Shown: in pieces, positions 7,448 to 31,867 of the stretch
Position numbering within the stretch: position 1 is the stretch's first letter
Layout of the letters: every line of letters begins with the position of its first letter
From: Anaerolineales bacterium
GTDB lineage: Bacteria > Chloroflexota > Anaerolineae > Anaerolineales > UBA4823
Assembly (NCBI GenBank): GCA_016935755.1
Contig: JAFGQI010000170.1
Span: 5,770-69,769, forward strand
Direction: 5' to 3'
DNA: 64,000 nt
Notes under the pieces: generated by a model
The model's database searches: none
What the model was told of the DNA's origin: nothing
What the model saw: only the letters and a program-made list of their open reading frames with translations
Position numbers and translations under genes: made by a program

Positions 7448-7487
7448 TGTCTTGTCAAGCGCACTTTTTCGGTTATCATTATAGGGT

Positions 7488-10065: not shown

Positions 10066-10142
10066 GGGTGGATAGCTCAGTTGGTTAGAGCACTGCGTTG
10101 ACATCGCAGAGGTCGTAGGTTCGAGCCCTATTCCACCCACCA
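10066..10142 (+). tRNA. tRNA-Val (anticodon GAC), CCA encoded
   Basis: Cloverleaf folded by hand. Acceptor GGGTGGA/TCCACCC. D arm AGCTC-AGTTGGTTA-GAGC. Anticodon stem CTGCG/CGCAG with loop TTGACAT. T arm GTAGG-TTCGAGC-CCTAT. Then A-CCA. Confidence 0.9.
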
Positions 10143-14212: not shown

Positions 14213-14244
14213 ACTGATACCGCGCCTCAGAAGTATTTTTATTG

Positions 14245-15546: not shown

Positions 15547-15547
15547 T

Positions 15548-18139
15548 ATGCAAGAGAATATCGCATTGGCAAAGGCCAGGATTGGGGCAGATAGGGTATC
15601 TTTGGGGATAGTATTCGGATTCCTGGCGGGGTCGGGCTTCACCCTGGCATTATGGGGATATGAGGCAGTTCTTCTCTCAAACGCCTCGGCAGAACTCCCC
15701 TGGCTGAAATTTGCTATCGGTGCGCCTGCCTGCCTGTTGATCAGCATTCTGGCAGGCTGGCTGACCGCCCGCTTCGACAACAGCCTGTTAGGATTTATCA
15801 TCTGGGGGCTGTCCGGGCTGGGCTTTGTCTGGATTGCCAGCCACACGCCATTCGAAGGTCTCACACTGGTTCTCACCCGCCTGGAACCAGTGTTCCAGGG
15901 GTTTGATCTTTATCCCTTCGTTCTCAGCGCCTGGGCGCGCATGCAGCTGCTGTATATCATCGCCGGGCTGCTCACCGGTCTGGCAGGATCTTTTGAACTC
16001 TTTCTGATCGAGTCGGCTTTGCGATCTGCTTATTTTTTCGCCCGGCTCTTTACCTTCTTGATCTTCCTGCTCATTCTCGCCCCTATTGGCCTGGCAATTG
16101 ACAATCTGATCAACCAGCCTCTGCGAGAGCCCATCCTGGTGATCGATGATTTGATCCAGACCGGGCTGCAGGCGGAGATCACGCCTTTTACCAAGGATGA
16201 GGCGCGCCAGCTGGGTTTGAGCGCGATCAAAACCTTCGGCAGCCTGATCCACCAACCCTATCAGATCAACCTGGGCAGGTACGATCCCGAGTCGCTCTCG
16301 GAGACCTCCGTGCATATCAATTTCAATGGCACCTGGGGAACTTGCTTTGTGCTGGATAACCGGCCCATGTACTGCCAGTTGAGCCGTGATCTCTATCTGA
16401 AGAGATTCGCCTGCAGCCTGGACAGCAGCCGGCGAAAATCCTGCCTGATGAAGATCGAGCCAGAGGCGGATGAAGAATTAGACGAACTCGCCCAGGCCCT
16501 GGGCGGGTCGCCAGTGATTCAAACGATCGATCAGCGAGGCGCGATTGTCTTGCTGGCTGTAACCGGTCCTTCCGGGCAGAAATTCCAATGCGCCCTGGAA
16601 ATCGCCGGGAACATCTATTTTAACTCCTGCAAGCCCCTGACTACGCCGCTCGAAATCATCGGAGAGCCAACCAGCACGCTGTTGCCCAGCTCCATACCAG
16701 CAGTCACCCTCCAGCCAACCCTGGCAGCCTCCCCTATCTCAGCGCTGATCTCCCCGCAGGATCTGGACCACCCCGCCCTGCAGGATGCGCCGCGCTATGC
16801 CATCACGCTGACCATCGATTACTCCGGGCATGCCCTGGATGGGCTCATGCAGGTCGATTATGTTAACACGGAAAACACCGCTCTTGATTCACTGTACTTC
16901 CGCCTGCTGCCCAACGGCAAGGGCAGCTATGGGGACGGCTCGCTGACGGTCAAGAACGTGGATGTCAATGGGCAGCCAGTCCAAACCAGCCTCTCTGTCA
17001 ACGATACTGTCCTGAAAGTCGACCTGCCCGCCCGGCTGGAGCCAGGCCAGGCCGCGCAGATCGAACTGGAGTTCAGCGGACAGGTGCCGCTCGATTTTGG
17101 CGGCGAGGCTACCCCGGCGGGATACGGCATCTATAACCTGAGCCAGGGGGTGATGGCGCTCTCCGGCTGGTACCCCACCCTGGCCGTATACGATCAGGAT
17201 GGCTGGAACCTGGATGCGCCTTCGGAGATCGGCGACTCGGGCTTCAGCGACATGGCTTTTTATTCCGTGGATGTCACCGCCCTCAGCAGCCTGGTGATGG
17301 CCGCCACAGGCACCCAGACTGGCATGGAAGCTCTGATCGGGAAGCGGGTCTACCATTACGAAAGTGGGCCGGCGCGCGACTTTTTCTTGATCGCCAGCCC
17401 GGACTTCAAAATTGCCAGCCGGATAGTGGATGGGACAATGGTCAATTCATACTATTTACGCGGCCAGGAGGCGGCGGGCGAGACCGTCCTGCAGGTGGCA
17501 AGCGACTCACTGAAGATCTTCAACCAGCTCTTCGGCGCCTACCCCTATGCTGAATTCGATGTGGTGCAGGCGCCCATGCGCAACGCGCTGGGAGTGGAAT
17601 TCCCCGGGATTGTCTTGATCGGCGCGGACGAGTATGCCGACTACGACCAATCGGACGTCCACACAACCATCGCCCATGAAGTCGCTCACCAATGGTGGTA
17701 CAACCTGGTGGGCAACGATGTGTTCGACGAGCCCTGGCTGGATGAGGCCCTGGTCACCTACGTGTCCAGCTTCTATTTTGAGTTTGGGCCCTCCCACAGC
17801 GTGCCGCTGCCCCTGATCCAATACTGGCAGGGGCGCTACGATCAGCTGCGCCAGGACGGGCTGGACGAACCGATCGCCTCCACGCTGGCGCACTTCGAAA
17901 GCCTGAACAACCCGCGCGTCTACGGCGGGGTGGCCTATTCCAAGGGGGCGCTTTTCTTCTATGCCCTGCGCCAGGAGATCGGCGACCCGGCTTTCTTCCA
18001 GGCCTTGAAGGATTATTTCCAGGCTTACCAGTACCGCATCGCCCGTGGGCAGGATCTGCTGGATATCTTCGAGCAGGCCGCCGGGCAAGATTTGGATGAT
18101 TTCTACCAGCAGTGGCTGTACACCAAGAGCACGCCTTGA
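15548..18139 (+). CDS. membrane-anchored M1-family zinc aminopeptidase
   Basis: About 5 predicted TM helices in the first ~200 aa. HEVAHQWWYNLVGND...WLDEALVTY (HEXXH-X18-E). Confidence 0.85.
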   Translation: MQENIALAKARIGADRVSLGIVFGFLAGSGFTLALWGYEAVLLSNASAELPWLKFAIGAPACLLISILAGWLTARFDNSLLGFIIWGLSGLGFVWIASHTPFEGLTLVLTRLEPVFQGFDLYPFVLSAWARMQLLYIIAGLLTGLAGSFELFLIESALRSAYFFARLFTFLIFLLILAPIGLAIDNLINQPLREPILVIDDLIQTGLQAEITPFTKDEARQLGLSAIKTFGSLIHQPYQINLGRYDPESLSETSVHINFNGTWGTCFVLDNRPMYCQLSRDLYLKRFACSLDSSRRKSCLMKIEPEADEELDELAQALGGSPVIQTIDQRGAIVLLAVTGPSGQKFQCALEIAGNIYFNSCKPLTTPLEIIGEPTSTLLPSSIPAVTLQPTLAASPISALISPQDLDHPALQDAPRYAITLTIDYSGHALDGLMQVDYVNTENTALDSLYFRLLPNGKGSYGDGSLTVKNVDVNGQPVQTSLSVNDTVLKVDLPARLEPGQAAQIELEFSGQVPLDFGGEATPAGYGIYNLSQGVMALSGWYPTLAVYDQDGWNLDAPSEIGDSGFSDMAFYSVDVTALSSLVMAATGTQTGMEALIGKRVYHYESGPARDFFLIASPDFKIASRIVDGTMVNSYYLRGQEAAGETVLQVASDSLKIFNQLFGAYPYAEFDVVQAPMRNALGVEFPGIVLIGADEYADYDQSDVHTTIAHEVAHQWWYNLVGNDVFDEPWLDEALVTYVSSFYFEFGPSHSVPLPLIQYWQGRYDQLRQDGLDEPIASTLAHFESLNNPRVYGGVAYSKGALFFYALRQEIGDPAFFQALKDYFQAYQYRIARGQDLLDIFEQAAGQDLDDFYQQWLYTKSTP

Positions 18140-19681: not shown

Positions 19682-19710
19682 TTGACATGCGTCGCAATCT
19701 GTTGTACAGT
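19682..19710 (+). promoter_or_regulatory. promoter of yefM-yoeB
   Basis: TTGACA, a 17-nt spacer, then TACAGT. GGAGG lies 5 nt before the ATG at 19738. Confidence 0.5.
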
Positions 19711-19737: not shown

Positions 19738-20028
19738 ATGACCATTCAAACTACCTATACCCAGGCGCGCGCCAGCCTGGCAAAGCTGCTGAGGCAGGTT
19801 ACCCATGACCGCGACGTGGTGATCATCCAGCGCCGCGGCCAGGAGGATGTGGCTATGATCTCGGCTTCTGAGCTTTCCAGCCTGATCGAGACCGCCTACC
19901 TGCTGCGATCACCCAAGAATGCCGAGCGTTTGTTGGGAGCGTTGGCACGCGCCTTGAAAGACGATGGTGCGCCGCAAACGATTGATGAACTGCGCCAGGA
20001 GGTCGGGATTGACCAGGAAAGCGCGTGA
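19738..20028 (+). CDS. yefM: Phd/YefM-family antitoxin
   Basis: TYTQARASLAKLL..VVIIQRRGQEDVAMISASELSSLIETAYLLRSPKNAERL is close to the E. coli YefM pattern. Confidence 0.85.
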   Translation: MTIQTTYTQARASLAKLLRQVTHDRDVVIIQRRGQEDVAMISASELSSLIETAYLLRSPKNAERLLGALARALKDDGAPQTIDELRQEVGIDQESA

Positions 20029-20281
20029 AGCTGTTTTCCACCCGGAGTTCATTGAAGAAATGCGCTATTGGGTCGAAACAGACCGCAAGCTGGCCTTACG
20101 CGCCTTTGACTTGATCGAAGCGATCCTGCGTGATCCATTTCAAGGCAGCGGAAAACCAGAGCCGCTCAAGTACCTGGCGCCAGGGGTCTGGTCGCGACGG
20201 CTGACCCACGAGCACCGGATTGTGTACCTGGTGCGTGACGAGCGGATTGATTTTCTGCAGGGGCGATACCACTATGTTTGA
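20009..20281 (+). CDS. yoeB: YoeB/Txe-family mRNA interferase toxin
   Basis: YWVETDRKLALRAFDLIEAILRDPFQGSGKPEPLKYLAPGVWSRRLTHEHRIVYLV..GRYHY. A TTG start 6 nt after AGGAGG is proposed; ATG at 19985 is the alternative. It overlaps the yefM 3' end. Confidence 0.8.
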   Translation: MTRKAREAVFHPEFIEEMRYWVETDRKLALRAFDLIEAILRDPFQGSGKPEPLKYLAPGVWSRRLTHEHRIVYLVRDERIDFLQGRYHYV

Positions 20282-20302
20282 TCTCTCGTTCGTCCATATC
20301 AC

Positions 20303-20344
20303 CAAAATTGGGGCTTGACAATTTTGCAAGGGTTATGATAAACT
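20303..20344 (+). promoter_or_regulatory. promoter with overlapping operator-like palindrome
   Basis: CAAAATTG-N8-CAATTTTG (20303-20326) overlaps the -35 TTGACA (20315-20320). An 18-nt spacer leads to TAAACT (20339-20344). TTAACG recurs (twice in full, plus an abutting TAACG) at 20353-20375. Confidence 0.4.
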
Positions 20345-20393
20345 CACGATCGCTTAACGAATCCTTAACGTAACGAAAGGAAAGACGCACTTC

Positions 20394-20483
20394 ATGGTCA
20401 ACACAGTTCTTGCCAATTCTTGCGCTTGCACCCTGGTCGATAGCGGTGGTGCAGCTGTTGCCTTCTCGGAGTGCGCCTGCTGA
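20394..20483 (+). CDS. unannotated 29-codon Cys-rich small ORF
   Basis: Hand translation gives MVNTVLANSCACTLVDSGGAAVAFSECAC*. A GAAAGGAAAG purine tract lies upstream. The ORF is too short for the ORF track and is flanked by the promoter above and the terminators below. Confidence 0.45.
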   Translation: MVNTVLANSCACTLVDSGGAAVAFSECAC

Positions 20484-20513
20484 TCGGAAAGTAATTCCGG
20501 TTATGTGATTACC

Positions 20514-20550
20514 AGCCACGGGCGCCCTCCGGTCCCGTGGCTTTTTTATT
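20514..20550 (+). terminator. intrinsic terminator T1
   Basis: AGCCACGGG, an 11-nt loop, CCCGTGGCT, then TTTTTATT. Confidence 0.7.
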
Positions 20551-20573
20551 CTTGCTTGCCTATCCTCACCTGG

Positions 20574-20609
20574 CCAGCCACGGGAAAACCCTGTGGCTGG
20601 TTTTGTTTT
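20574..20609 (+). terminator. intrinsic terminator T2 (same arm sequence as T1)
   Basis: CCAGCCACGGG-AAAA-CCCTGTGGCTGG followed by TTTTGTTTT. Confidence 0.7.
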
Positions 20610-20647
20610 AGCAGCTTTTGTTTTGGATGTACGTTGTGGAGGTCGCG

Positions 20648-21517
20648 ATGTTTGCTCAAACGAATACCGCTATTCAGGTACGCGAAGCCTACAAGCAGTT
20701 CGGCAGCCCGATCCTGCCGCTCTGGCGCCGCATGCCCCGCTCAAACGGCAAGCCCAATGGCGCGCCGAACACGAACAGTCACGCCTCCTTTGTGGTGGCG
20801 GTGGATCATGTCTCGTTCAGCGTCGCCCAGGGCGAAATTTTCGGCATCCTGGGACCGAACGGCTCGGGCAAGTCCACCCTGATCCGTCTGCTGGCAACCC
20901 TGCTGCTGCCGGATGGCGGCGACATTCGCGTCTTCGGCTACGATGTCGTGCGCCAGCCGATGCAGGTGCAGCGCCTGATCAACCGCGTCTCGGTGGAAGC
21001 CAGCTTCTTCAAGAAGCTCTCGCCGATGGAGAACCTGGTCTACGGCGCACGGCTGTATGGCATGCGCGGCGCCGAGACCCGCCAGCAGGTGGTCGAAATC
21101 CTGACCCGCCTGGGCCTGGAGCAGCGCGCTATCCACAAACCAATGGAGGAAATGTCGCGCGGCATGCAGCAGAAAGTGGCCATTGCCAGAGCGCTGCTCT
21201 CGCGGCCGCGCCTGCTGCTGCTGGACGAACCCACTACCGGCCTCGATCCGCGCTCAAAGCGGGAAGTCCAGCAAGTAGTGCAGGAATTGCGCCAGGAACA
21301 CGGCACCACCATCCTGCTCACCACCCACGACATGACCGAAGCCGACCAGCTGTGCGACCGCATCGCCATCATCGAAGGCGGAAAGATTGTCGCCCTGGAC
21401 ACGCCGGACGCGCTGAAGCGCATCATCCCGCGCAACGGGCACGAACCGACCCTTGAGGACGTGTTCCTGGAACTGACCGGCAAGAAGCTGGTCAAGGAAG
21501 AAGAGACCGTTGCATAA
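20648..21517 (+). CDS. ABC transporter ATP-binding protein (ABC-2/DrrA type)
   Basis: Walker A GPNGSGKST, signature MSRGMQQK, Walker B LLLLDEPTTGLD. The ATG at 20648 lies 5 nt after GGAGG. Confidence 0.9.
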   Translation: MFAQTNTAIQVREAYKQFGSPILPLWRRMPRSNGKPNGAPNTNSHASFVVAVDHVSFSVAQGEIFGILGPNGSGKSTLIRLLATLLLPDGGDIRVFGYDVVRQPMQVQRLINRVSVEASFFKKLSPMENLVYGARLYGMRGAETRQQVVEILTRLGLEQRAIHKPMEEMSRGMQQKVAIARALLSRPRLLLLDEPTTGLDPRSKREVQQVVQELRQEHGTTILLTTHDMTEADQLCDRIAIIEGGKIVALDTPDALKRIIPRNGHEPTLEDVFLELTGKKLVKEEETVA

Positions 21518-21601
21518 CACGATCCATGGGCTGGCCTGGCAGTGAACCAACCAGGCCAGCCCGGACACACATGAAAAGATAAGGCATGAGGAGCATCAAC
21601 A

Positions 21602-22183
21602 ATGAGAATTAACGAACCACTATTATCCAGCGAGCACATCTGCCTGGCGCCGATCGACCACGAGAAGGATCCCGAGATCGAGGCCGGCTGGAGCAACGAC
21701 GCCTATTATCTGCGCATGCTCAGCTTTGACCCGGTCCGTCCGATCTCTGCGGCCCAGCAGAAGAAAAAATACGAGGCAATCGAGAAAGAACAGGAAGATG
21801 ACAAAAACCTGTTCTACTACACCATCCGCATGCGCGAAGACGACCGCCTGATCGGTTTTGCTCGCATCCAATGGATCGAGTGGTCGAACAGCACTGGATT
21901 CGTCCAGCTCGGCATCGGCGATGGAAACGCTCGCCTGAAAGGCTATGGCAGTGAAGCGCTGCGCATGCTGCTGCGTCTGGCTTTCGAAGAATATAACCTG
22001 TACCGGCTGACTGCCCTGATCGGCGAATACAACCCGGTCGCCCTGCATGTCTTTGCAAAAGCCGGCTTTGTCGAAGAAGTCCGCCGGCGCCAGGCGCTCT
22101 ACCGGGATGGCCGCCGCTGGGATCTCATCCATATGGGCATCCTGCGGCCAGAGTGGGAACAGGCGAACCGGATAGAAGCCTGA
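21602..22183 (+). CDS. GNAT N-acetyltransferase (RimJ/RimL-like)
   Basis: LIGFARIQWIEW..GIGDGNARLKGYGSEALRMLLRLAFEEYNLYRLTALIGEYNPVALHVFAKAGF. Confidence 0.85.
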   Translation: MRINEPLLSSEHICLAPIDHEKDPEIEAGWSNDAYYLRMLSFDPVRPISAAQQKKKYEAIEKEQEDDKNLFYYTIRMREDDRLIGFARIQWIEWSNSTGFVQLGIGDGNARLKGYGSEALRMLLRLAFEEYNLYRLTALIGEYNPVALHVFAKAGFVEEVRRRQALYRDGRRWDLIHMGILRPEWEQANRIEA

Positions 22184-22226
22184 TCGAGCAACGTGGGAAT
22201 TTTCGCCCACCAGAAAGGATCACCAG

Positions 22227-22787
22227 ATGATAACAGACCTGTTTCGCGGACAGCTTGTCCGCCTGACCGCCGAAGACCCGGAACTGATGGGTAAAGCGTT
22301 TTCGCGCTGGTATCGCGATACAGAATACCATCGCCTGTTGGATACCAGCCCCTCACAGCTCTGGTCAGCTAAAAAGTTCAAGGAATGGATCGAAAAGGAT
22401 TACGAGAAGGACCAGCCAAATTTTTTCCCCTTCCAGATCCACACCTTGAGCGATGACCAGCTGATCGGTTTTCTTGGGTTATTTTTGCCCACCTGGTCTC
22501 ATGGAGACTGCTGGGTAGGCATCGGGCTGGGCGAACGCGAGTATTGGGGCAAAGGCTACGGCACAGACGCCATGCGCCTGGCCCTGCGCTACGCCTTCGC
22601 CGAGCTGAACCTGCACCGCGTTACCCTGGGCGTGTTTGAATATAACCCGCGCGCCATCCGCTCCTACGAAAAAGCCGGCTTCAGGCTGGAAGGCCGCGAA
22701 CGCCAGGTGCTTCACCGGGATGGACAGCGCTGTGATATCTTGATCATGGGAATTTTGCACGAAGATTGGGACAGGATGCAGGCATGA
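22227..22787 (+). CDS. GNAT N-acetyltransferase (RimJ/RimL-like), tandem paralog A
   Basis: GIGLGEREYWGKGYGTDAMRLALRYAFAELNLHRVTLGVFEYNPRAIRSYEKAGF. Confidence 0.85.
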   Translation: MITDLFRGQLVRLTAEDPELMGKAFSRWYRDTEYHRLLDTSPSQLWSAKKFKEWIEKDYEKDQPNFFPFQIHTLSDDQLIGFLGLFLPTWSHGDCWVGIGLGEREYWGKGYGTDAMRLALRYAFAELNLHRVTLGVFEYNPRAIRSYEKAGFRLEGRERQVLHRDGQRCDILIMGILHEDWDRMQA

Positions 22788-23365
22788 ACACAGAGATGAA
22801 ATTGAGTGTTACTTTGTTCCAGGGAGAACTGGTGCGCCTGACCGCCGCCGACCCCCAGACCACCGCCGAGGCCTTCAGCCGCTGGTCGAGAGACTCGGAA
22901 TACTGGCGTCTGCTGGCCAGCGATCCCTGCCTTCCCCATTCTGTCAAGGCCATCAAACAGTGGCTGGAGAAAGACCAGGAGAAAGATCCTCTGCCCTACA
23001 CGATGTTCTTGATCCACACCCTGGAAGATGACCGCCTGATCGGGGATATCGGGCTGGAAGGCTACCTGGGCAGCCACGGCGACACCTTTGTCGGCATCGG
23101 CCTGGGAGAGCGCGAGTATTGGGGCAAGGGTTACGGCACAGACGCCATGCGCATTATCCTGCGCTACGCCTTTTTCGAGCTGAACCTGGAGCGCGTTTCC
23201 CTGGATGTGTTCGAATACAACCCGCGCGCCATCCGCTCTTACGAGAGAGCCGGCTTCAAGCATGAGGGCCGCCTGCGTGGGTATCTCAACCGGGGCGGCA
23301 AACGCTACGATCTCATCTTTATGGGCATCCTGCGCGCTGAATGGCTGGAGATATACGGTAAGTGA
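22784..23365 (+). CDS. GNAT N-acetyltransferase (RimJ/RimL-like), tandem paralog B
   Basis: GIGLGEREYWGKGYGTDAMRIILRYAFFELNLERVSLDVFEYNPRAIRSYERAGF. ATGA overlap with paralog A. Long near-identical nucleotide runs are shared with A. Confidence 0.85.
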   Translation: MNTEMKLSVTLFQGELVRLTAADPQTTAEAFSRWSRDSEYWRLLASDPCLPHSVKAIKQWLEKDQEKDPLPYTMFLIHTLEDDRLIGDIGLEGYLGSHGDTFVGIGLGEREYWGKGYGTDAMRIILRYAFFELNLERVSLDVFEYNPRAIRSYERAGFKHEGRLRGYLNRGGKRYDLIFMGILRAEWLEIYGK

Positions 23366-23434
23366 TCTGGCTTAAAAAATAAACCAGACAAACCCGCTTC
23401 ATGCTGCGGGTTGATTGAAAGGAACGAGGGTAAG

Positions 23435-24262
23435 ATGACAACGCTGGCTCACGAATTCAGGGCGACCTACGCCTTTGTCGAGCGCAACGCCAACCTGATC
23501 AAACGCTACTGGTCATGGGAACTGGTCTGGATGGCCTATTCCATCGCCAACAGCCTCTCGGTCAGCTATATCGGCCTGGGGATGGAGAAGATCGGCGGCA
23601 GCGAAAATGTAGACGGACGCTACCTGGTGCTGTATCTGGTGGTCGGCACGCTGGTCTGGCGCTACCTGTCGATGATTTTCTACTGGATCACCGATGTGAT
23701 CGGCATGGAGCGCTGGGAAGGCACGATCGAATACACCCTGATGGCGCCCATCCACCGCATCACCCATATGGCCGGGCAGACCCTGTTCGCAGTGGTCTAC
23801 AGCATGTTTTTCACCGGCATCATCCTGGCGGTGACCGTGGCGATGTTCGACATCGATTTGAGCCAGGCCAACCTGTGGGGCGGTGTGCTGATGCTCATCG
23901 CCGGCAGCCTGTCTTTCATCGGCGTTGGCATCATGGGCTCCGTCCTGCCGATGCTTTTTCCGGAGCGCGGCTCGCAGATGACGCATGTCATCATCGCTGT
24001 GCTGCTGCTGGTATCTGGCGTGTACTATCCCGTGGATGTACTGCCCAGCCTGCTGCAGAAGCTGGCTGTGGTCAGCCCGGCCACCTATGTGCTGGATGGC
24101 ACCCGCCGCGCCCTGCTGGAAGGTCTGGCAACCCGCCACCTGTGGCCCTACATCTGGCCCACGCTGTTGATGGGGCTGGTCGCCATCCCGGTTGGCCTGT
24201 GGGTGTTCGAACAGGCCGAGCGCTACGCCAAGCGCACGGGTAAACTGCACCGCAACGGGTAG
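23435..24262 (+). CDS. ABC-2 type transporter permease
   Basis: About 6 TM segments. N-terminal FVERNANLIKRYWSWELVW is typical of the ABC-2 permease family. It pairs with the ATPase at 20648. Confidence 0.85.
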   Translation: MTTLAHEFRATYAFVERNANLIKRYWSWELVWMAYSIANSLSVSYIGLGMEKIGGSENVDGRYLVLYLVVGTLVWRYLSMIFYWITDVIGMERWEGTIEYTLMAPIHRITHMAGQTLFAVVYSMFFTGIILAVTVAMFDIDLSQANLWGGVLMLIAGSLSFIGVGIMGSVLPMLFPERGSQMTHVIIAVLLLVSGVYYPVDVLPSLLQKLAVVSPATYVLDGTRRALLEGLATRHLWPYIWPTLLMGLVAIPVGLWVFEQAERYAKRTGKLHRNG

Positions 24263-24277
24263 AAAACGAGTCCAGAG

Positions 24278-25204
24278 ATGAACCAACCCCGCCCATACCA
24301 GAACGGCCAGGATTTCAAGCGCATGAAAGCTTTGCTGGTAGAAGGCCGCAAAGCTGCCAATGGCACCTATTACGTCCACCCCGGCGACCTGAGCTGGTGG
24401 TTGTTTTACAACCTGCCGGAGGACGATCTATGGGCCAACATCTACCTGTGGGAAGATCAGCGCCAGGGCAGCGAGCTGCTCGGTTGGACGCTGTTCAGCC
24501 CGAAATGGTCCAGCTTCGATGTCTTCTTTTACCCAAGCCTCAGAAACAGCGGCCTGGTGGAGCATATGTTCACCTGGAGCATGGAACGCGCCCAGCAGAT
24601 GGCCCGGCAGGCAGGCAAAGCGCGCATCGCCACCGTGTGGATATCGGAAAAAGATACCCGCCTCAGCGGTCTCTTAGGGCGCTGCGGCTGCCTGCCCAGC
24701 CCAGAAGGCCTGCTCTATCTGACCCGCTCTCTGGAAGGCCCGCTGCCCGAAAGCGCGCTTCCTGCAGGCTTTCAGGTGCGCTCAGTAAAAGATGAAAGCG
24801 AGGCGGGGATGCGCGCGGCGGCTTCCTATGCCGCTTTCGAATCAACAATGCCCTTCGAAACGTACCAGCAGCGCTACCTGCGCTTCATGCGCTCCCCGGT
24901 TTATCGCTCAGAGAATGACCTCATCATCACGGCCCCAGACGGGCAGGGCGCGGCTTTCTGCATCCTCTGGCTGGATTCCACCAACCAGGTGGGGCTGTTT
25001 GAACCGGTTGGCGCCCACCCCGCTCACCAGCGGAAGGGCCTGGGCAAAGCCGTTATGCTGGAAGGGCTCAGGCGTATGCAAACCCAGGGGATAAAGACCG
25101 CCATGGTCTGCGTGGAGCAGGATAATCTGCCCGCCCAGCGGCTGTACCTGTCCTGCGGTTTCAAGATCACGGACCGCCTAATCACATATGAAAAGAATCT
25201 ATAA
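24278..25204 (+). CDS. two-domain GNAT-family acetyltransferase
   Basis: C-terminal GNAT motif A VGAHPAHQRKGLGKAVMLEGLRRM. The 308-aa length implies a degenerate N-terminal GNAT-like half. Confidence 0.7.
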   Translation: MNQPRPYQNGQDFKRMKALLVEGRKAANGTYYVHPGDLSWWLFYNLPEDDLWANIYLWEDQRQGSELLGWTLFSPKWSSFDVFFYPSLRNSGLVEHMFTWSMERAQQMARQAGKARIATVWISEKDTRLSGLLGRCGCLPSPEGLLYLTRSLEGPLPESALPAGFQVRSVKDESEAGMRAAASYAAFESTMPFETYQQRYLRFMRSPVYRSENDLIITAPDGQGAAFCILWLDSTNQVGLFEPVGAHPAHQRKGLGKAVMLEGLRRMQTQGIKTAMVCVEQDNLPAQRLYLSCGFKITDRLITYEKNL

Positions 25205-25239
25205 GTCACGCTTTGGCGTGTGAAAGAAGAGAAAATACA

Positions 25240-26253
25240 ATGTTAGCTTTAGAAAATACTGATCTGCTCATACTCCCAGATGCGCCGGCAATCCCGGGGC
25301 TGATCTTCCGCCGTTTTCAGGGCGAGAGCGATTTCCCCCACATGCACGCCATCATCCACGGATGTAAACAAGCCGATGACAGCGAACGCTCAGATACGGT
25401 GGAGGATATCCGCCGCAACTATTCCCACCTGGTCAACAGCGACCCCGATCGCGACATGCTCTTTGCCGAGATCGCTGGCGAAGCCATCGCCTACAGCCGG
25501 GTCAGCTGGCGCACGGAGCCTGATGGCAAGCGAATATTCCAGCACTTCGGCTTTTTGCTGCCCGCCTGGCGACGCCAGGGCATTGGCCGCGCCATGCTGA
25601 GATACAACCAGGCGCACATCCGCCAGCTGGCAGCTGCCCAGACCAACCATGCCCCGCAAATGTTTGAGTCTTTTGCCGGGGATAAAGAAACCTCGGCCAC
25701 CGCCCTGCTGCTGAGCGAAGGCTACCTGGCGGTGCGACACTTCTACGAAATGGTGCGCCCGGACTTAGAAAATATCCCCGAAGCCCCCATGCCGGAGGGG
25801 TTAGAAGTGCGCCCCGCCGGGCCTGAGCAGTTCCAGGCCATCATCGACGCCAGCAAGGAGGCTTTCAGAGATCACTGGGGCTTCAGCGAGGATGATGAGC
25901 CGACCGTCGCGCAGATCGCCGAGGACCCCAATACGGATCCCCGCCTGTGGCGGGTTGCCTGGGCCGGGGACGAAATTGCCGGAATGGTGCTGAGTTTCAT
26001 TGATCAAAATCAGAACGCCGAGTACAATCGCTTGCGAGGCTGGACGGAAAATATCTGCGTCCGCCGCCCCTGGCGGCGCCTCGGTCTGGCGCGCTCTCTG
26101 CTGGTGCAGAGTCTGCACGCCGTCAAGGAACGCGGCATGCGCGAGGCGGCTCTGGGCGTGGATACGGAAAACCTGTCTGGCGCTCTGCGATTATATGAAA
26201 GCGTAGGGTTCAGACCCGTCAAGCGCTTTACAACCTATCACAAACCCTTCTAA
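25240..26253 (+). CDS. two-domain GNAT acetyltransferase (MshD-like architecture)
   Basis: Two motif-A copies: WRRQGIGRAMLRY and WRRLGLARSLLVQSLHAVKERG. ATG at 25240 is preferred over the track TTG at 25213. Confidence 0.7.
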   Translation: MLALENTDLLILPDAPAIPGLIFRRFQGESDFPHMHAIIHGCKQADDSERSDTVEDIRRNYSHLVNSDPDRDMLFAEIAGEAIAYSRVSWRTEPDGKRIFQHFGFLLPAWRRQGIGRAMLRYNQAHIRQLAAAQTNHAPQMFESFAGDKETSATALLLSEGYLAVRHFYEMVRPDLENIPEAPMPEGLEVRPAGPEQFQAIIDASKEAFRDHWGFSEDDEPTVAQIAEDPNTDPRLWRVAWAGDEIAGMVLSFIDQNQNAEYNRLRGWTENICVRRPWRRLGLARSLLVQSLHAVKERGMREAALGVDTENLSGALRLYESVGFRPVKRFTTYHKPF

Positions 26254-26269
26254 GATCGGAGATTTACCT

Positions 26270-26881
26270 GTGATTCGAGCCGTAATCTGGGATTTAGGTG
26301 GTGTGCTGGTGCGCACAGAGGACAGCAGGTCTCGCGAGGATTTAGCCAGGCGCAGCGGGAAAACACGCCGGGAATTAGAAGATCTGGTTTTTGGTCTCGA
26401 GGCGGGCCGCCGGGCGCAGCTGGGCGAGCTCAGCCATGCTGAGCATTGGGAATATTTGCGGCAGTACTTCCATTACACCCCTGAAGAAATCCAGGCCTTT
26501 CGCCTGGATTTCTTCAGGGGAGACAGGCTCGATCATGATTTGATCGATTATATCCGCAGCCTGCGCGGGCGCTGCAAAACTGGGCTGCTCAGCAATGCCT
26601 TCTCCGATTTGCGCCATCTGGTCACCGAGGTCTGGAACATTGCGGATGCCTTCGACGAGATGATTATCTCTGCCGAGGCCGGGATAATGAAGCCCGACCC
26701 GCGCATCTATCACCTGGCGCTCTCCAGGCTGGGTGTGGAACCTCAAGAAGCCATCTTCATCGATGACTTCGCCCACAACGTGGATGGAGCAAGAGCAGTC
26801 CAGATGCATGCCATCCACTTCAAAAATCCCGCCCAGGCGCGCGCAGAGTTGGAAGCCCTCTTGAATGGAGACAGGGCATGA
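26270..26881 (+). CDS. HAD-superfamily hydrolase (subfamily IA)
   Basis: VIWDLGGVLV motif I, LLSNAF motif II, and AIFIDDFAHNVDGA motifs III/IV. Confidence 0.8.
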   Translation: MIRAVIWDLGGVLVRTEDSRSREDLARRSGKTRRELEDLVFGLEAGRRAQLGELSHAEHWEYLRQYFHYTPEEIQAFRLDFFRGDRLDHDLIDYIRSLRGRCKTGLLSNAFSDLRHLVTEVWNIADAFDEMIISAEAGIMKPDPRIYHLALSRLGVEPQEAIFIDDFAHNVDGARAVQMHAIHFKNPAQARAELEALLNGDRA

Positions 26882-28275
26882 CAGATATGGATCTGACCGG
26901 CCTGCGCCTGTCCGAGGCCGCCGAGCTGATCGCCCGGCGGGCGATCACCCCGCTTGACCTGACCCAGGCGCACCTGGAGCGTATCGCCAGCCTGGACTCC
27001 CACCTGAACTGCTTCATCACCCTGACTGCCGACCTGGCCCTGCAGCAGGCTCACCAGGCAGGCCAGGCCCTGCGCCGCCTGGGGCAGCCTCCCAGCCCGC
27101 TCTTTGGCCTCCCCATCGGATTGAAGGACCTTTACGAAACCCAGGGCGTCCGCACCACCGCTGGTTCGACCTTCTTTGCGGACTACATCCCCGCCGCAGA
27201 CTCGGCAGTGGTGGCGAAGCTCAAGAGCTGCGGGGCCATCCTGCTGGGCAAGCTCAACATGCACGAGATTGCCCTGGGCGTGACCAATGTCAACCCCCAT
27301 TACGGCGCCTGCCGCAATCCCTGGGCGCTCGAGCGCGTCTCTGGGGGATCCTCGGGCGGCAGCGCGGCCGCCCTGGCGACCTGCCTCTGCCTGGGCGCGC
27401 TGGGCTCAGACACGGGCGGCTCCATCCGCATCCCGGCTGCGCTGTGCGGGATCGTGGGCTTGAAGCCGACCTATGGAGCGGTCAGCCTGCGCGGGGTGAT
27501 GCCGCTGAGCTGGAACCTGGATCACGCCGGGCCGATGGCGCGGCGGGTGCGGGATGTTGCCATACTCCTACAGAGCATCGTCGGCTATGACCCAAGCGAT
27601 CCTTACTCGCTGCAGGGAAAAGCGGAGAATTATACCGCCCAGATTAGTGAGGGCGTGCGCGGCTGGCGCGTGGCTCTGGCGACCGGTGATTTCTTCGAGG
27701 GGATTGACTCCGAAGTCTGGGGAGCTGTTCAGCAGGCCAGCCAAGTCTTCGAAGGGCTGGGGGCGCGGGTGGAGCGGGTGGAACTGCCATTTGCTCGGCA
27801 GGCGGCCCTTGCCAACGGGCAGATGGTCGTCGCCGAGGCGGCCTTCATCCATCGCGAGCGACTGCAGAACCAGCCTGAGATGTTCGGGGCAGATGTCCTG
27901 GCGCGTTTGCAGAGCGGCGCGGCGCTGGGACAGCCAGAATACATTCAGGCGCGGCGCACGCAGTCCCTGCTGCGGCGCGAGTTCGAGCGGTTCTTCGACC
28001 ATTTTGATCTTCTGCTCACGCCCACCACGCCCATTCCCGCGCCGCTGATCGAAGGCCCGGATGCGGTCGAGCAGGCGCGCCTGCTGACCCGTTTCACCGC
28101 GCCCTTCAACCTGACCGGCCTTCCGGCAATATCGCTGCCCTGCGGCTTCAGTTCCCAGGGGCTGCCCATCGGCCTGCAGATCATCGCCCGCCCCTGGGCA
28201 GAGGCCGCCCTGCTGCGCGCCGCCTATGCCTACGAGCAGGTCACCGACTGGCATACCAGAACACCCAATCTGTGA
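26878..28275 (+). CDS. amidase-signature family amidase
   Basis: GGSSGGSAAALA..GSDTGGSIRIPAALCG is the amidase signature. ATGA overlap with the HAD gene. Confidence 0.9.
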   Translation: MTDMDLTGLRLSEAAELIARRAITPLDLTQAHLERIASLDSHLNCFITLTADLALQQAHQAGQALRRLGQPPSPLFGLPIGLKDLYETQGVRTTAGSTFFADYIPAADSAVVAKLKSCGAILLGKLNMHEIALGVTNVNPHYGACRNPWALERVSGGSSGGSAAALATCLCLGALGSDTGGSIRIPAALCGIVGLKPTYGAVSLRGVMPLSWNLDHAGPMARRVRDVAILLQSIVGYDPSDPYSLQGKAENYTAQISEGVRGWRVALATGDFFEGIDSEVWGAVQQASQVFEGLGARVERVELPFARQAALANGQMVVAEAAFIHRERLQNQPEMFGADVLARLQSGAALGQPEYIQARRTQSLLRREFERFFDHFDLLLTPTTPIPAPLIEGPDAVEQARLLTRFTAPFNLTGLPAISLPCGFSSQGLPIGLQIIARPWAEAALLRAAYAYEQVTDWHTRTPNL

Positions 28276-29522
28276 AAAAACCAGGTGCATACCAGGTTTA
28301 CCTCTTTCTAGAGGGAGCCTCCGCTCTGCTCTATTCGATGATCTTTGCCGCCAGCAGCGTCTATCAGGTGACGGTGGCGGGACTGAGCCCTTTACAGCTC
28401 GTCCTGGTGGGCACCACCCTGGAAACGGCGGTCTTCTTGTTCGAAATTCCCACCGGCGTGGTAGCAGATGTCTACAGCCGCAAGCTGTCGATTATCATCG
28501 GGTTGATCCTGGTAGGCGGTGGGTTTATCCTGGAAGGCTCAATCCCTATATTTTGGACCATCCTGCTGGCGCAAATCTTGTGGGGGCTGGGCTACACCTT
28601 CACCAGCGGGGCCACCCAGGCCTGGATCAGCGATGAAATCGGTGAGCAGGAGGCCAACCGGGCCTTCCTGCGCGCAAACCAGGTCGGCAACATCGCCGGA
28701 CTGGTCGGGCTGGCAGCCGGGATGACGCTGGGCAGCTTCCAGATCAATATCCCCATCCAGCTTGGCGGAGGGCTGCTCGTCGGGTTAGGCCTTTTTCTCA
28801 TCTGGAGCATGCCCGAAAGCGGGTTTCAGCCCATCCCTCGGGAGGATCGCAGTTCGTGGCAGAATCTTGTCCACACATTTCGTCTGGGGATCCAGACCGT
28901 GCGCAGCCGCCCGGCTCTGCTGAACATCCTGAGCGTCGGCCTGATCTATGGGCTGTACAGCGAGGGCTTTGACCGCCTGTGGACCAAGCATCTGCTGGAT
29001 AATTTCATCCTGCCGACAGCTTTCAACCTGCAGCCGGTGTTCTGGATCGGCTTGATGCGCGTGGCTGGCCTGCTGCTGGCGGTGGGCTTTACAGAGATCG
29101 CCCGGCGGAAGATCAACACCGGCAGCTTCACTGCCATCGCCCGCGCCCTGTTTTTCCTTTCGGTTTTACTGATCGCTGGCTTGTTCAGCTTCGCTCTGGC
29201 AGGCAGTTTAGCATTTGCCGTGCTGGCCTATTGGCTGATCTCGATCACCCGCGACCTGATCGGACCTATTTACACCGCCTGGGTGAACCAGCGGCTGGAG
29301 CCGGGCGTGCGGGCGACGGTGATCTCGATGAGCAGTCAGGTAGACGCCATCGGGCAGATCGCTGGCGGGCCGGTCCTGGGGGTGATTGGCAGCGCAGTAT
29401 CCGTGCGCGCCGCGCTGGTCGCCTCGAGCGCCATCCTTTCGCCCATCCTGATCCTTTACCGGCGCGCGATCCACAGCCCAGCAGTCCATTCAAACAATGA
29501 AATAAAAGAGCAGCACCTGTAA
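28272..29522 (+). CDS. MFS transporter
   Basis: About 12 hydrophobic segments. GTGA overlap with the amidase gene. Confidence 0.8.
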   Translation: MKKPGAYQVYLFLEGASALLYSMIFAASSVYQVTVAGLSPLQLVLVGTTLETAVFLFEIPTGVVADVYSRKLSIIIGLILVGGGFILEGSIPIFWTILLAQILWGLGYTFTSGATQAWISDEIGEQEANRAFLRANQVGNIAGLVGLAAGMTLGSFQINIPIQLGGGLLVGLGLFLIWSMPESGFQPIPREDRSSWQNLVHTFRLGIQTVRSRPALLNILSVGLIYGLYSEGFDRLWTKHLLDNFILPTAFNLQPVFWIGLMRVAGLLLAVGFTEIARRKINTGSFTAIARALFFLSVLLIAGLFSFALAGSLAFAVLAYWLISITRDLIGPIYTAWVNQRLEPGVRATVISMSSQVDAIGQIAGGPVLGVIGSAVSVRAALVASSAILSPILILYRRAIHSPAVHSNNEIKEQHL

Positions 29523-29545
29523 TCATGGGTGCTGCTCTTTTAAGT
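29504..29545. terminator. bidirectional intrinsic terminator (MFS gene / metK)
   Basis: AAAAGAGCAGCACC (29504-29517) pairs with GGTGCTGCTCTTTT (29528-29541): a 14-bp stem. The A-run and T-run give a U-tract on both strands. Confidence 0.7.
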
Positions 29546-29566: not shown

Positions 29567-30778
29567 TTACAACCCGGCTGCTTTTCTCAGCGCATCGGCT
29601 TTGCCCGTCCGCTCCCAGGGCAGGTCCAGGTCATCGCGGCCGAAGTGCCCGTAGGCCGCCACCTGGCGGTAGATCGGCCGCCGCAGGCCCAGGTCGCGGA
29701 TGATGGCTCCGGGGCGCAGGTCGAAGTGCTCCAGGATCAGTTGGGCAATCTGCTCATCAGAGATTTTGCCCGTGCCGAAGGTCTCCACGTTGACGCTGAG
29801 AGGGTGCGCCACGCCGATGGCGTAGGCCACCTGGATTTCACAGCGGCTGGCTAACCCTGCGGCAACGATATTCTTGGCTGCCCAGCGCGCCGCGTAGGCG
29901 GCCGAGCGGTCCACCTTGGTGGGATCCTTACCGCTGAAGGCGCCGCCGCCATGCCGGCCCATGCCGCCATAGCTGTCGACAATAATCTTCCGCCCGGTCA
30001 CCCCGGCGTCGCCCTGCGGGCCGCCGATGACAAAACGGCCGGTCGGATTGACGAAGATCTTCATCTGGTCGTCTACCATCTCGGGTGGGATGATCGGCTT
30101 GATAATATGCTCGATTACCGCGGCGCGGATCTCTTCCTGTGAAATATCTGGGGCATGCTGTGTGCTCACCAGGACGGTATCCACCCGCACGGGCCGGCCG
30201 AAACTGTATTCCACCGTCACCTGGGTCTTGCCGTCCGGGCGCAGCCAGGGCAAAGTCCCGTCCTTGCGCTTGACACTCAACTGGCGGGCTAACTTATGCG
30301 CCAGGTAGATGGGCATCGGCATCAGCACGGGGGTCTCATCGCAGGCATAACCGAACATCATGCCTTGATCGCCCGCACCGATGGTATCCAGTTCATCGGC
30401 GCTCATCTCCCCGGTCTTGGTCTCCAGAGCGTGGTTCACGCCCATAGCGATATCCCCCGACTGCTTGGCAATTGACAGCAGCACGCCGCAGTTATTGCCA
30501 TCCAGGCCTTGCGAAGTGTCATCGTAACCAATTTCGATGATCACCCGGCGAGCCAGGTCATCAAAGTTGAACTGGGCATTGGTAGTAATTTCGCCCAACA
30601 GCAGCACAAAACCCGTCTTCGAGGCCGTTTCACAGGCCACGCGAGAAGCAGGATCCTGCTCCAGACAGGCGTCTACCACCGCATCGCTGATCTGGTCGCA
30701 CAGCTTGTCCGGATGGCCTTCGGTCACCGATTCAGAGGTGAACAGCAGGCGGGGTGAGCTCATAAACGTAGATGTCAT
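29567..30778 (-). CDS. metK: S-adenosylmethionine synthetase
   Basis: [53 protein letters not shown]. Confidence 0.97.
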
Positions 30779-30789
30779 ATATTCTCCTT

Positions 30790-30960
30790 TTTTAATAAGA
30801 TTTGCCCCTTCCGGTCTACAAGAAAGGGCAAAACGCGAGAACTCACTGCCGCCCTCTCATCTTCCAGAACCTCCGTCTGCCGGAATTGGCACCGTCGATT
30901 CATATAGAACCCGGTTGCCGAGGCTTCATAGGGCCGGTCCCTCCGCCTCTCTGGATAAGA
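30790..30960 (-). promoter_or_regulatory. SAM-I (S-box) riboswitch with expression-platform hairpin
   Basis: Minus strand reads TCTTATCCAGAGAGGCGGAGGGACCGGCCCTATGAAGCCTCGGCAACC..GGTGCCAATTCCGGCAG..GGAAGATGAGA, matching the S-box core consensus from memory. It is followed by the TTTGCCCTTTC..GAAGGGGCAAA hairpin and then the AAGGAG RBS of metK. Confidence 0.85.
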
Positions 30961-30993
30961 GCGCCATTTAGGGGCTATAAATTTGTAGACAAC

Positions 30994-31048: not shown

Positions 31049-31867
31049 CTAGAGAAAAAACCAGACGATGAGATAATAACCAATCACGCTGGCCCACAGC
31101 CAGGAATCAACCCGATCTAAAAATCCCCCATGCCCGGGGAGCAGATTGCTCGAATCCTTCATCCCCACCTGTCTCTTGAGCATGCTTTCACCCAGATCGC
31201 CCAAAATTGTCAGAACCCCCATCGCCAGCCCGAGGGCCGCGCCGCTCCAGGCCGTCAGCGAGACGCCCGGCCCGGCTGCCCAGGCCCATAAAGCCGCCAG
31301 CCCGGCTGTCCCAAGAACAGCCACCGGGATCCCGCCCAGATAGCCCTCCCAGGATTTCTTCGGGCTCAGCCGGGGCGTGATCTTGTGACGTCCAAAACGA
31401 GTGCCGAACACATACGCCCCACTATCTGCCAGCCAAACGGCCGGCAAGGCCACCAATACCCACCATTTCCCATCCGGTAAGTTCCGCAGCGAAATGAAAT
31501 ATCCCCCAATCCAGCCAAGATATAGGATGCCCGCCAGGGTGATGGCGAAATCAGTCCCGGCCTGGTCGCGGCCCCGCTCATATGCCACCAGATGGTAAGC
31601 CATGCTCACCAGGAAGATCAGGCTCAAAATCCAGGGGGCGCTGGTGAAACCGTCGACCCCCCTGCCCACCAGCAGGGCCAAAGTCCCGCCAATCACCACC
31701 ACGCCTGCAGGCTGCCACCCCCCGGCGCGAAATAAGCCCACATATTCCCAGGCTGCCAGACCAAGGAGTATCATGATCACCGCAGCATAGGCCAGCCCCC
31801 CCAGCGCGATGGCAGCTATACCCAGCGGTAACAAAACAATCGCTACCAGCAGGCGATTAACAAGCAT
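31049..31867 (-). CDS. cdsA: phosphatidate cytidylyltransferase
   Basis: Polytopic membrane protein. C-terminal signature SMLKRQVGMKDSSNLLPGHGGFLDRVDS. Confidence 0.9.
   Translation of the reverse strand: MLVNRLLVAIVLLPLGIAAIALGGLAYAAVIMILLGLAAWEYVGLFRAGGWQPAGVVVIGGTLALLVGRGVDGFTSAPWILSLIFLVSMAYHLVAYERGRDQAGTDFAITLAGILYLGWIGGYFISLRNLPDGKWWVLVALPAVWLADSGAYVFGTRFGRHKITPRLSPKKSWEGYLGGIPVAVLGTAGLAALWAWAAGPGVSLTAWSGAALGLAMGVLTILGDLGESMLKRQVGMKDSSNLLPGHGGFLDRVDSWLWASVIGYYLIVWFFL

Follow-up and report, generated by a model that had tools for sequence, protein, structure and literature searches.

A predicted ribosome-sensing attenuator in front of a transporter and acetyltransferase operon in Anaerolineales

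Leader-peptide attenuators that sense the stalling of ribosomes are known in Firmicutes, Actinobacteria and Proteobacteria. For Chloroflexota, our search found neither an Rfam family nor a paper describing such an attenuator. Here, we describe a candidate from this phylum, a short leader with a small open reading frame (ORF) and two terminators that stands before a run of genes for an ABC-2-type pump, GNAT acetyltransferases, hydrolases and a major facilitator superfamily (MFS) transporter in an Anaerolineales bacterium. It lies in a stretch of 64,000 nucleotides (nt) of contig JAFGQI010000170.1, which is called the window hereafter and to which all the positions refer. An earlier note on this DNA, made from the letters of the window, had taken the small ORF for a Cys-rich peptide gene and had suggested that the genes behind it could be a detoxification island or a peptide-tailoring module.

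Three groups of described systems come closest. In Bacillus subtilis, the multidrug ABC exporter BmrCD is controlled by attenuation at the leader peptide BmrB, and is induced by protein-synthesis inhibitors (PMC4191407). The present locus shares with BmrB-BmrCD a small leader ORF, presumably translated and co-transcribed with an ABC exporter, and alternative stem-loops that include an intrinsic terminator, and in metagenomes the same leader precedes heterodimeric exporters whose likeness to BmrCD is one of architecture. Unlike the case of BmrB, to which it has no sequence relationship, the present leader seems to couple two terminators by a relay. Unlike BmrCD, the pump behind it in the window is of the ABC-2 type (type V), has GNAT genes embedded among its own, and comes from the phylum Chloroflexota.

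The second group is whiB7/wblC of Actinobacteria. Efficient translation of the upstream ORF (uORF) of whiB7 leads to a terminator and translation stress to an antiterminator, and the regulon includes eis, tap, erm and hflX (PMC10274678). Direct WhiB7 targets in Mycobacterium abscessus comprise several RimI- and RimL-type GNATs, MFS pumps and ABC-F proteins, and one of them, MAB_4324c, is induced by ribosome-targeting antibiotics and weakly acetylates amikacin (PMC10727445). A uORF-dependent switch between terminator and antiterminator is predicted here as well, and the gene content, with GNATs, MFS pumps, ABC-F proteins and methyltransferases, is similar; MAB_4324c is the nearest solved homologue of one of the GNATs in the window (g7 below). 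However, the actinobacterial attenuator controls one transcription factor that activates a dispersed regulon, whereas the present leader seems to stand in cis, as a copy of its own, directly before every effector operon, and no trans regulator is evident. In sequence, the two leaders are unrelated, and the present leader peptide shows no enrichment of Ala.

The third group consists of the antibiotic-resistance (ARE) ABC-F genes vmlR, msrD and lmo0919, which have leader-peptide attenuators (PMC9226507, PMC10314930). A short ORF and an intrinsic terminator ahead of an ABC-F gene of the ribosomal-protection type are found with the present leader in at least six metagenome contigs, while the copy in the window precedes pumps and acetyltransferases and no ABC-F gene. 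As the peptide of the present leader is not kept in a single frame, no specific drug-dependent arrest peptide can be made out. As to the gene products, DrrAB, the AAC(6'), SpeG and RimL acetyltransferases and TetA(P) have Pfam families and folds in common with those encoded here and are their best-scoring curated families, but all the curated cut-offs are missed, and in contrast to DrrAB-type systems GNAT genes here separate the ATPase gene of a pump from its permease gene. Thus, the gene content of the present system appears to resemble the WhiB7 response, while its control appears to resemble the BmrB and ABC-F leaders.

Two mutually exclusive RNA structures in the leader

The leader is composed of the following elements.

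20315-20344, forward strand: promoter-like site, TTGACA, 18 nt, TG-n-TAAACT (extended -10)
20384-20393, forward strand: segment A, GACGCACUUC, between the Shine-Dalgarno sequence (SD) and the AUG; can pair with M
20394-20483, forward strand: leader ORF of 29 codons, MVNTVLANSCACTLVDSGGAAVAFSECAC and stop, with its own SD and start codon (the small Cys-rich ORF)
20459-20478, forward strand: conserved motif of 20 nt at the 3' end of the leader ORF, UGCCUUCUCGGAGUGCGCCU
20468-20477, forward strand: motif core M, GGAGUGCGCC, the proposed antiterminator strand
20514-20548, forward strand: terminator 1, with arm 1 (20514-20522), loop (20523-20533), arm 2 (20534-20542) and U-tract
20572-20609, forward strand: terminator 2, with 13 pairs; its 5' arm (arm 3, 20576-20584) complements arm 2 of terminator 1

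Related loci were collected by a scan with the permease over one genome per species, which gave 80 loci, all in Chloroflexota, and the proteins of the window were then compared with these loci by tblastn. The motif is present with five or fewer mismatches upstream of the ATPase gene in 47 of 69 loci. When 39 leaders were aligned by MAFFT (alignment A1) and used as a profile for nhmmer, the leader was found once per locus, on the coding strand and just upstream of the ATPase gene, in about 60 of the 69 loci, while no second copy was detected in the window. The earlier note had proposed to check whether the small ORF co-occurs with the genes behind it, and in most of these loci it does. The motif has invariant columns in A1. 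No Rfam family matched the leader at gathering score, and a permissive scan of 20250-20680 gave two small-RNA hits at chance level (E 4-10); nor did we find a paper describing the leader.

What is conserved here besides the motif? The leader contains two mutually exclusive RNA structures, both of which covary. The first consists of the two terminators, hairpins with the same stem and with U-tracts. In A1, terminator 1 is paired in 94% of cells, with four pairs changed on both sides and a conserved loop sequence, and terminator 2 in 83% of cells. Both of them were recovered independently by RNAalifold on the MAFFT alignment; RNAalifold recovered nothing else, and the alternative helices were named by hand and then counted on A1. 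The second structure is composed of two helices. Terminator 1 is complementary to M over 20521-20530, that is, the end of arm 1 and most of the loop, and this pairing of M with the loop is kept in 92-97% of cells with compensatory changes: in locus L025, M reads GGAGUACGCC and the loop GGUGUAUUCC, while in L017 they read GGAGUGUGCC and GGUACACUCC. The helix between arm 2 and arm 3 is paired in 91% of cells with four covarying pairs. Taken as one alternative structure, the two helices are paired in 92.2% of cells against 32-46% in slid controls, and eight of their pairs are changed on both sides, a number that none of 500 shuffles reaches. Moreover, the stem cores of terminators 1 and 2 vary in parallel between lineages, being CACGG, CGCGG or CGUGG in both, a pattern to be expected only where complementarity between arm 2 of terminator 1 and the 5' arm of terminator 2 has to be kept. 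A third helix, between A and M, is weaker (59-76% of cells paired across the 39 leaders); it also occludes the ribosome-binding site of the leader and is present in the minimum free energy structure of the window copy.

Folding of the window leader in growing lengths gave the same alternatives. From M to the loop of terminator 1, the M:loop helix forms (-30.9 kcal/mol); from M through the complete terminator 1, the M:loop helix persists and terminator 1 stays unformed (-34.2 kcal/mol); from M to arm 3, the M:loop and arm 2:arm 3 helices coexist (-51.2 kcal/mol); and the full leader folds into A:M with terminators 1 and 2 (-89.3 kcal/mol). Thus, in these folds, M that is free when terminator 1 emerges leads to a structure in which both terminators are disabled, while masking of M lets both of them form.

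The small ORF is as constant as these structures, while its peptide is not. Of 97 full-length leaders, taken from genomes and metagenomes, 96 have an SD and a start codon followed by an ORF of 15-42 codons (median 31). In the 96 leaders the stop ends between -7 and +25 nt from the end of the motif, a placement compatible with occlusion of M by a ribosome; most commonly it ends at +12, where a terminating ribosome would cover only part of M. Our first search, a regular expression for peptides ending in ECxC, gave only about 12 loci, and it was the nucleotide-level and SD-anchored searches that then exposed a switch of frame. Thirty of the 96 leaders, including that of the window, read the motif as (F/L)(S/A)ECAC before the stop, 65 read it as P-(S/Y/C/F)-R-S-A-P-x-x-R before the stop with no Cys from the motif, and one uses the third frame; four leaders counted with the ECAC-frame group stop inside the motif. 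The switch is explained by an insertion or deletion of 1 nt between an internal hairpin and the motif. The window peptide has four Cys and ends in CAC, and the earlier note suggested that the genes behind it could form a tailoring and export module for a Cys-rich peptide or a thiol metabolite. Because the motif is read in differing frames, the cysteines are a by-product of the RNA sequence UGC-GCC-UGC, and because 65 of 96 leaders read it without Cys, the leader peptide cannot be a conserved core of a ribosomally made, post-translationally modified peptide (RiPP); the suggestion does not survive this count. An amino-acid-specific attenuator was also considered and rejected as unlikely, since no residue is consistently enriched besides the Cys and Ser encoded by the motif.

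Some further features of the leader are to be noted. A CCUU at 20461-20464 (A1 columns 121-124), just 5' of M, is invariant or nearly so in the 39 leaders; it has a pairing partner in neither proposed structure, and it contains a Pro codon (CCU) only in the majority frame. A hairpin inside the ORF (20432-20455; A1 columns ~85-110) appears by eye to covary, as ccgcu...agcgg, guccgauauuggac and auccgaaucgUGAAcgguuuggau, in a region where the MAFFT alignment is not structural; it overlaps codons for a conserved S/A-G-G, and it may act as a hairpin for transcriptional pausing. One locus (L067) has a partial (7180-7305) and a complete (7381-7614) leader in tandem upstream of one ATPase gene. In this locus and in L004, L005, L012-L015, L019, L028, L034, L041 and L043, the end of the leader is 150-600 nt away from an ATPase start that was extrapolated from the tblastn match.

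Genes behind the leader

The genes that follow in the window are listed below; families were assigned by Pfam, by the curated cut-offs of NCBIfam and by sequence comparison with solved structures.

20648-21517, forward strand: g1, ABC ATPase, DrrA-like (PF00005, 113.6 bits); GGAGG 6 nt before the ATG
21602-22183, forward strand: g2, single-domain GNAT, PF13302 (Acetyltransf_3)
22227-22787, forward strand: g3, single-domain GNAT, PF13302
22784-23365, forward strand: g4, single-domain GNAT, PF13302; ATGA overlap with g3
23435-24262, forward strand: g5, ABC-2 permease, PF01061; alternative TTG start at 23411
24278-25204, forward strand: g6, tandem-domain GNAT; Pfam finds the C-terminal GNAT domain; two motif-A-like sites
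25240-26253, forward strand: g7, tandem-domain GNAT; two Acetyltransf_1 stretches, two motif-A-like sites; alternative TTG start at 25213
26270-26881, forward strand: g8, HAD-IA hydrolase, PF00702; TIGR01509 (HAD-SF-IA-v3), 74.4 bits against a cut-off of 29.4
26878-28275, forward strand: g9, amidase-signature enzyme, PF01425 (407 bits), GGSSGGS motif
28272-29522, forward strand: g10, MFS transporter, TetA(P)/Tet(40)-like, PF07690 (MFS_1)
29503-29542, both strands: bidirectional terminator hairpin with an 18-pair stem and U-rich tails on each side, between g10 and the convergent metK

The dense run on one strand from 20648 to 29522 is as the earlier note described it, except that it holds ten successive ORFs, as does the note's own list, and becomes an eleven-gene block only when the leader ORF is counted. 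The three overlaps of 4 nt, ATGA at 22784-22787, ATGA at 26878-26881 and GTGA at 28272-28275, and the largest gap of 84 nt are exact, while the smallest gap is 8 nt and not 0. The bidirectional terminator downstream also stands. On the other hand, the twin terminators do not bound the block upstream. Other than the site at 20315-20344, no promoter-like site was found before g1, including the 38 nt from the end of the U-tract of terminator 2 (20609) to the start codon of g1, and as this sole site precedes the small ORF, the terminators are located inside the 5' leader of the operon. Its -10 element, TGgTAAACT, is found at the equivalent place in many related loci. The putative promoter would thus drive both the leader and the genes behind it, and the ten genes appear to form one operon. 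Apart from this, strong stem-loops without U-tracts are found in the gaps g1-g2 (21528-21562, forward strand; a perfect 12-bp stem, GGGCUGGCCUGG...CCAGGCCAGCCC) and g4-g5 (23391-23412, forward strand), flanking the GNAT insert; they may serve processing or stability, act as partial terminators or be insertion scars.

The gene order and the family assignments of the earlier note hold at the level of Pfam, but more specific names do not. The ATPase g1 stays below the drrA model TIGR01188 (270 against 312 bits), and the permease g5 below the DrrB model TIGR01247 (44.5 against 223 bits). More than 7000 relatives of g5 were found, none of which carries a functional name, and sequence search against solved structures gave nothing usable for it; an exact-sequence look-up of the TTG-start form gave no match, while the ATG-start form is on record (P0001). 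Among the single-domain GNATs, g2 is 40-42% identical to g3 and g4, and the latter two, being 64% identical to each other, are supposed to come from a recent tandem duplication. Where g3 and g4 carry RSYE(K/R)AGF, g2 carries HVFAKAGF, so that Phe replaces the Tyr that serves as the general acid in related PF13302 enzymes. Among solved structures, those closest to g3 belong to diamine and spermidine N-acetyltransferases and to AAC(6') enzymes (E ~1e-12 to 1e-10), and the hits of g2-g4 to the AAC(6') antimicrobial-resistance models of NCBIfam reach 35-47 bits over the C-terminal 55-80 residues only, against cut-offs of 250-450. Although they belong to PF13302, g3 and g4 miss the RimJ model PRK10809 (25-31 against 190 bits), and the RimI model TIGR01575 is missed as well (22-39 against 86 bits). 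The two double-domain GNATs of the earlier note are indeed tandem enzymes, 25% identical to each other, with pairs of motif-A-like sites in both and not only in the second; the MshD model TIGR03448, with which the note had compared the latter, is missed by both (51.5 bits for g6 and 43.5 for g7 against 163) while the tandem architecture itself is present. Two tandem GNATs match g7 over its full length, 3tt2 (2e-27) and the MAB_4324c structure 7q3a (1e-26). The amidase g9 is below the cut-offs of AtzE (375 against 461 bits) and GatA (336 against 481 bits), and g10 is below NF000043 (317 against 750 bits) and NF000049 (292 against 800 bits) though the alignments are full-length; TIGR01509 for g8 is the only subfamily cut-off of NCBIfam passed in the block. 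Therefore, the names RimJ/RimL, MshD and DrrAB, as far as the profile scores tell, denote resemblance at the superfamily level only.

Is this arrangement of genes more than chance? The recurrence in 80 independent Chloroflexota genomes indicates that it is. In every locus, the ATPase gene stands upstream of the permease gene on the same strand. Orthologues of g1 are 55-78% identical in the related loci, and those of g5 are 63-87% identical in Anaerolineae and Thermoflexales and 53-55% in Ktedonobacteria. The earlier note asked for linkage in related genomes, and the core of ATPase and permease is linked in all the related loci, while these differ in how many GNATs they have and in their accessory genes. 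Between ATPase and permease, 67 loci have no single-domain GNAT in 37 cases, two in 21, three in eight and four in one. Among 51 loci with at least 8 kb downstream, there are one to six tandem GNATs in 41, a HAD hydrolase in 25, an amidase in nine and a TetA(P)-like MFS transporter in five; such an MFS gene directly follows the permease gene in five other loci. A census of ORF families by Pfam revealed extra members on the same strand in relatives: an ABC-F gene directly after the permease gene in 11 loci, an Eis-like Acetyltransf_9 GNAT in 15, a second MFS gene in 22, and also a SAM (S-adenosylmethionine) methyltransferase, a YegS-like kinase and a metallophosphoesterase. From this comparison, the block is a vertically inherited chromosomal operon with a constant pump core and a variable accessory set. 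A mobile island was considered and rejected, as synteny extends over the transporter core and part of the upstream flank and divergence follows taxonomy across the class.

Metagenomes extend the range of genes that stand behind the leader. A scan with CCTTNNCGGAGTGCGCCT, a pattern of 18 nt with 16 specified bases, gave 120 contigs, about 75 of which have a full leader; about 40 of the 120 matches lack a surrounding leader and were put down to chance or to other contexts. At least 100 examples of the leader were recovered overall. An ABC-2-type ATPase gene lies directly behind the leader in about 30 contigs, but other clients are also found. In six contigs (L087, L094, L104, L134, L162 and L168), it is an ABC-F gene, a representative of which passes the model NF000355 for ribosomal protection-like ABC-F proteins (480 bits against a cut-off of 380) and has EttA, YbiT, VgaL and Lmo0919 as its nearest solved relatives. 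Seven contigs (L091, L110, L111, L114, L151, L152 and L169) carry two to five single-domain GNAT genes in an array but no pump, L115 has an MFS gene, L145 a HAD hydrolase and an amidase, and L190 a tandem GNAT, a HAD hydrolase and an amidase. In about ten contigs (L098, L129, L161, L165, L187 and others), pairs of fused ABC exporters of about 600 residues follow; these have matches to MsbA and SmdAB and a weak one to Tet(46), and are called BmrCD-like by architecture alone. The leaders of these contigs carry only one terminator, and M pairs directly with its 5' arm.

A possible response to translation stress and its rivals

With an ORF that has an SD and a start codon, intrinsic terminators and a covarying, mutually exclusive antiterminator, the leader appears to have the anatomy of an attenuator. 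How may it work? Transcription would start from about 20315-20344, and the gate would be made up of the 29-codon leader ORF, M and the two terminators. In the OFF state, a ribosome that translates the leader efficiently would terminate on or just past M, and M would be masked; if the leader is not translated, A, a candidate anti-antiterminator, would pair with M and mask it as well. Terminators 1 and 2 would then form, and transcription would end before g1. In the ON state, translation inhibitors or a shortage of charged tRNA, for instance, would delay the ribosome at an earlier point of the leader, and M would be free when the first half of terminator 1 emerges, so that it may pair with the end of arm 1 and the loop. 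The orphaned 3' arm of terminator 1 may then take the 5' arm of terminator 2, neither terminator would form, and RNA polymerase would read into the operon. As to the products, the GNATs may N-acetylate amine-bearing toxic compounds, for which aminoglycoside-like inhibitors, aminoacyl-nucleotides, amino-acid analogues or polyamine-like amines are candidates, the ABC-2 pump and the TetA(P)-like MFS transporter may export compounds, and the HAD hydrolase and the amidase would be accessory hydrolases. We infer the direction of the switch, the inducing signal and all these substrates; most likely, the leader switches the operon on when ribosomes stall.

Detoxification and resistance, half of what the earlier note had proposed under the name of an island, fit the context best because of the attenuator-type leader, its ABC-F and BmrCD-like clients and the likeness of g7 to MAB_4324c; the word island itself has to be given up for a core that is syntenic across a class. 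We thus believe, with modest confidence, that a ribosome-mediated attenuator governs a detoxification and efflux operon induced by translation stress. Several points weigh against this. Both the direction of the switch and the inducer are read from sequence. The A:M helix has only moderate support in the alignment, and some lineages (the L011, L021 and L025 group) lack it; as it is only partly conserved, the arm of the mechanism in which no translation means OFF is uncertain. The invariant CCUU lacks an identified partner, and the stop of the majority frame, 12 nt past M, would let a terminating ribosome cover M only partly. The operon of the window has no ABC-F gene, none of its enzymes reaches the cut-off of a curated resistance family in NCBIfam, and polyamine acetyltransferases are among the solved proteins that best match the single-domain GNATs. 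Finally, a pump so highly conserved (up to 87-89% identity) would suit housekeeping export too.

The last points lead to another possibility, homeostasis of polyamines or other endogenous amines, in which SpeG-like GNATs acetylate excess polyamines, the ABC-2 and MFS transporters export them and the leader senses polyamine-dependent stalling. Pairing of an acetyltransferase with an efflux pump is indeed a known design for polyamines, as in blt-bltD of B. subtilis, and diamine and spermidine N-acetyltransferases are the top solved matches of g3, besides weak NCBIfam hits to SpeG and PaiA. However, these matches are weak (E ~1e-12; 43 bits against a cut-off of 218), the ribosomal-protection-like ABC-F proteins and BmrCD-like exporters behind other copies of the leader do not suit it, and GNAT copies varying from zero to five suggest diversifying substrates rather than one metabolite. 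We therefore consider polyamine homeostasis unlikely. Slightly more doubtful is the idea that the GNATs modify the translation machinery itself, by RimI/J/L-like N-terminal acetylation as a response to translation stress, with the pumps as unrelated passengers. PF13302 is the RimJ/RimL family, weak hits to RimJ and RimI exist, the leader is supposed to sense translation, and regulons of the WhiB7 type hold many GNATs without a resistance phenotype (PMC10727445). Against it, the cut-offs of RimJ (31 against 190 bits) and RimI (22-39 against 86 bits) are widely missed, a number of GNATs that changes from zero to five among close relatives is unlike housekeeping modifiers, and these genes are placed between two subunits of a pump.

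Could the leader be a metabolite riboswitch or be bound by a protein, with the small ORF irrelevant? That the motif is kept at the nucleotide level whatever its frame, and that a hairpin within the ORF seems by eye to covary, would agree with this. But the nearly invariable SD and start codon (96 of 97 leaders), the narrow range of ORF length and the stop at the motif are hard to reconcile with an irrelevant ORF, the only conserved primary sequence is accounted for by terminator and antiterminator pairing, and neither a multi-helix core like that of an aptamer nor an Rfam match was found, so that we give this idea as little credit as the preceding one. A RiPP or thiol cluster, either with a Cys-rich precursor that is acetylated and exported or with a cysteine-responsive attenuator of a mycothiol-like pathway, may call on the four Cys and CAC end of the window peptide, on the distant likeness of the tandem GNATs to MshD and on polycysteine attenuators, which exist in mycobacteria (bioRxiv 10.1101/834739), but it is extremely improbable, being largely refuted by the frame switch (P-x-R-S-A-P without Cys in 65 of 96 leaders, stops inside the motif in four). 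Pfam showed no maturation enzyme (cyclodehydratase, LanM, radical SAM or similar) in the block or related loci, and the MshD cut-off of 163 bits is missed with scores of 51 and 43.

If we return to an attenuator that responds to translation stress, what would it mean? Most likely, the leader is a widespread, previously undescribed variant of ribosome-sensing attenuators that defines a stress-response gene set of Anaerolineae. Its relay would be unusual in that one antiterminator of 10 nt controls two terminators, and the decoding of one RNA motif in two frames reveals a constraint at the RNA level that overrides the peptide. The leader would mark genes otherwise anonymous as ABC transporter or GNAT family as parts of a co-regulated stress response, and offers a handle on intrinsic tolerance to antibiotics and xenobiotics in Anaerolineae, a class abundant in wastewater sludge, sediments and soils. 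A wider picture, which we put forward tentatively and hold to be somewhat less than an even chance, is that Anaerolineae carry a cis-encoded counterpart of the WhiB7 response, in which one leader has been copied before several effector operons (for the ABC-2 pump with GNAT arrays, ARE-like ABC-F proteins, BmrCD-like exporters and MFS pumps), a relay disarms two terminators and GNAT arrays have diversified against amine-bearing translation inhibitors. If true, an unexplored intrinsic resistome would exist in an abundant and mostly uncultured phylum. In addition, small Cys-rich ORFs beside transporters need a test of frame conservation before they are labelled as RiPP precursors.

Surroundings of the operon

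Directly upstream of the promoter of the leader, at 19738-20281 on the forward strand, overlapping genes encode a YefM antitoxin (PF02604) and a YoeB toxin (PF06769), with a promoter-like site of their own at 19682-19710. Neither this pair nor metK is a conserved neighbour in the related loci. The latter gene, encoding SAM synthetase, is located at 29567-30961 on the reverse strand, with a SAM-I riboswitch ahead of it (RF00162, 92 bits, 30854-30961); it converges with the operon, and the bidirectional terminator is common to both. The wider surroundings look like housekeeping, with a tRNA-Val(GAC) gene at 10066-10142 (forward strand) and cdsA (PF01148) and uppS (PF01255) downstream at 31049-32615 (reverse strand). 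Farther upstream of the operon, genes for a GSDH-like dehydrogenase and an M1-family peptidase occupy 14242-18139 on the forward strand, and among the related loci the upstream GSDH-like gene recurs in 14 and the M1 peptidase gene in seven.

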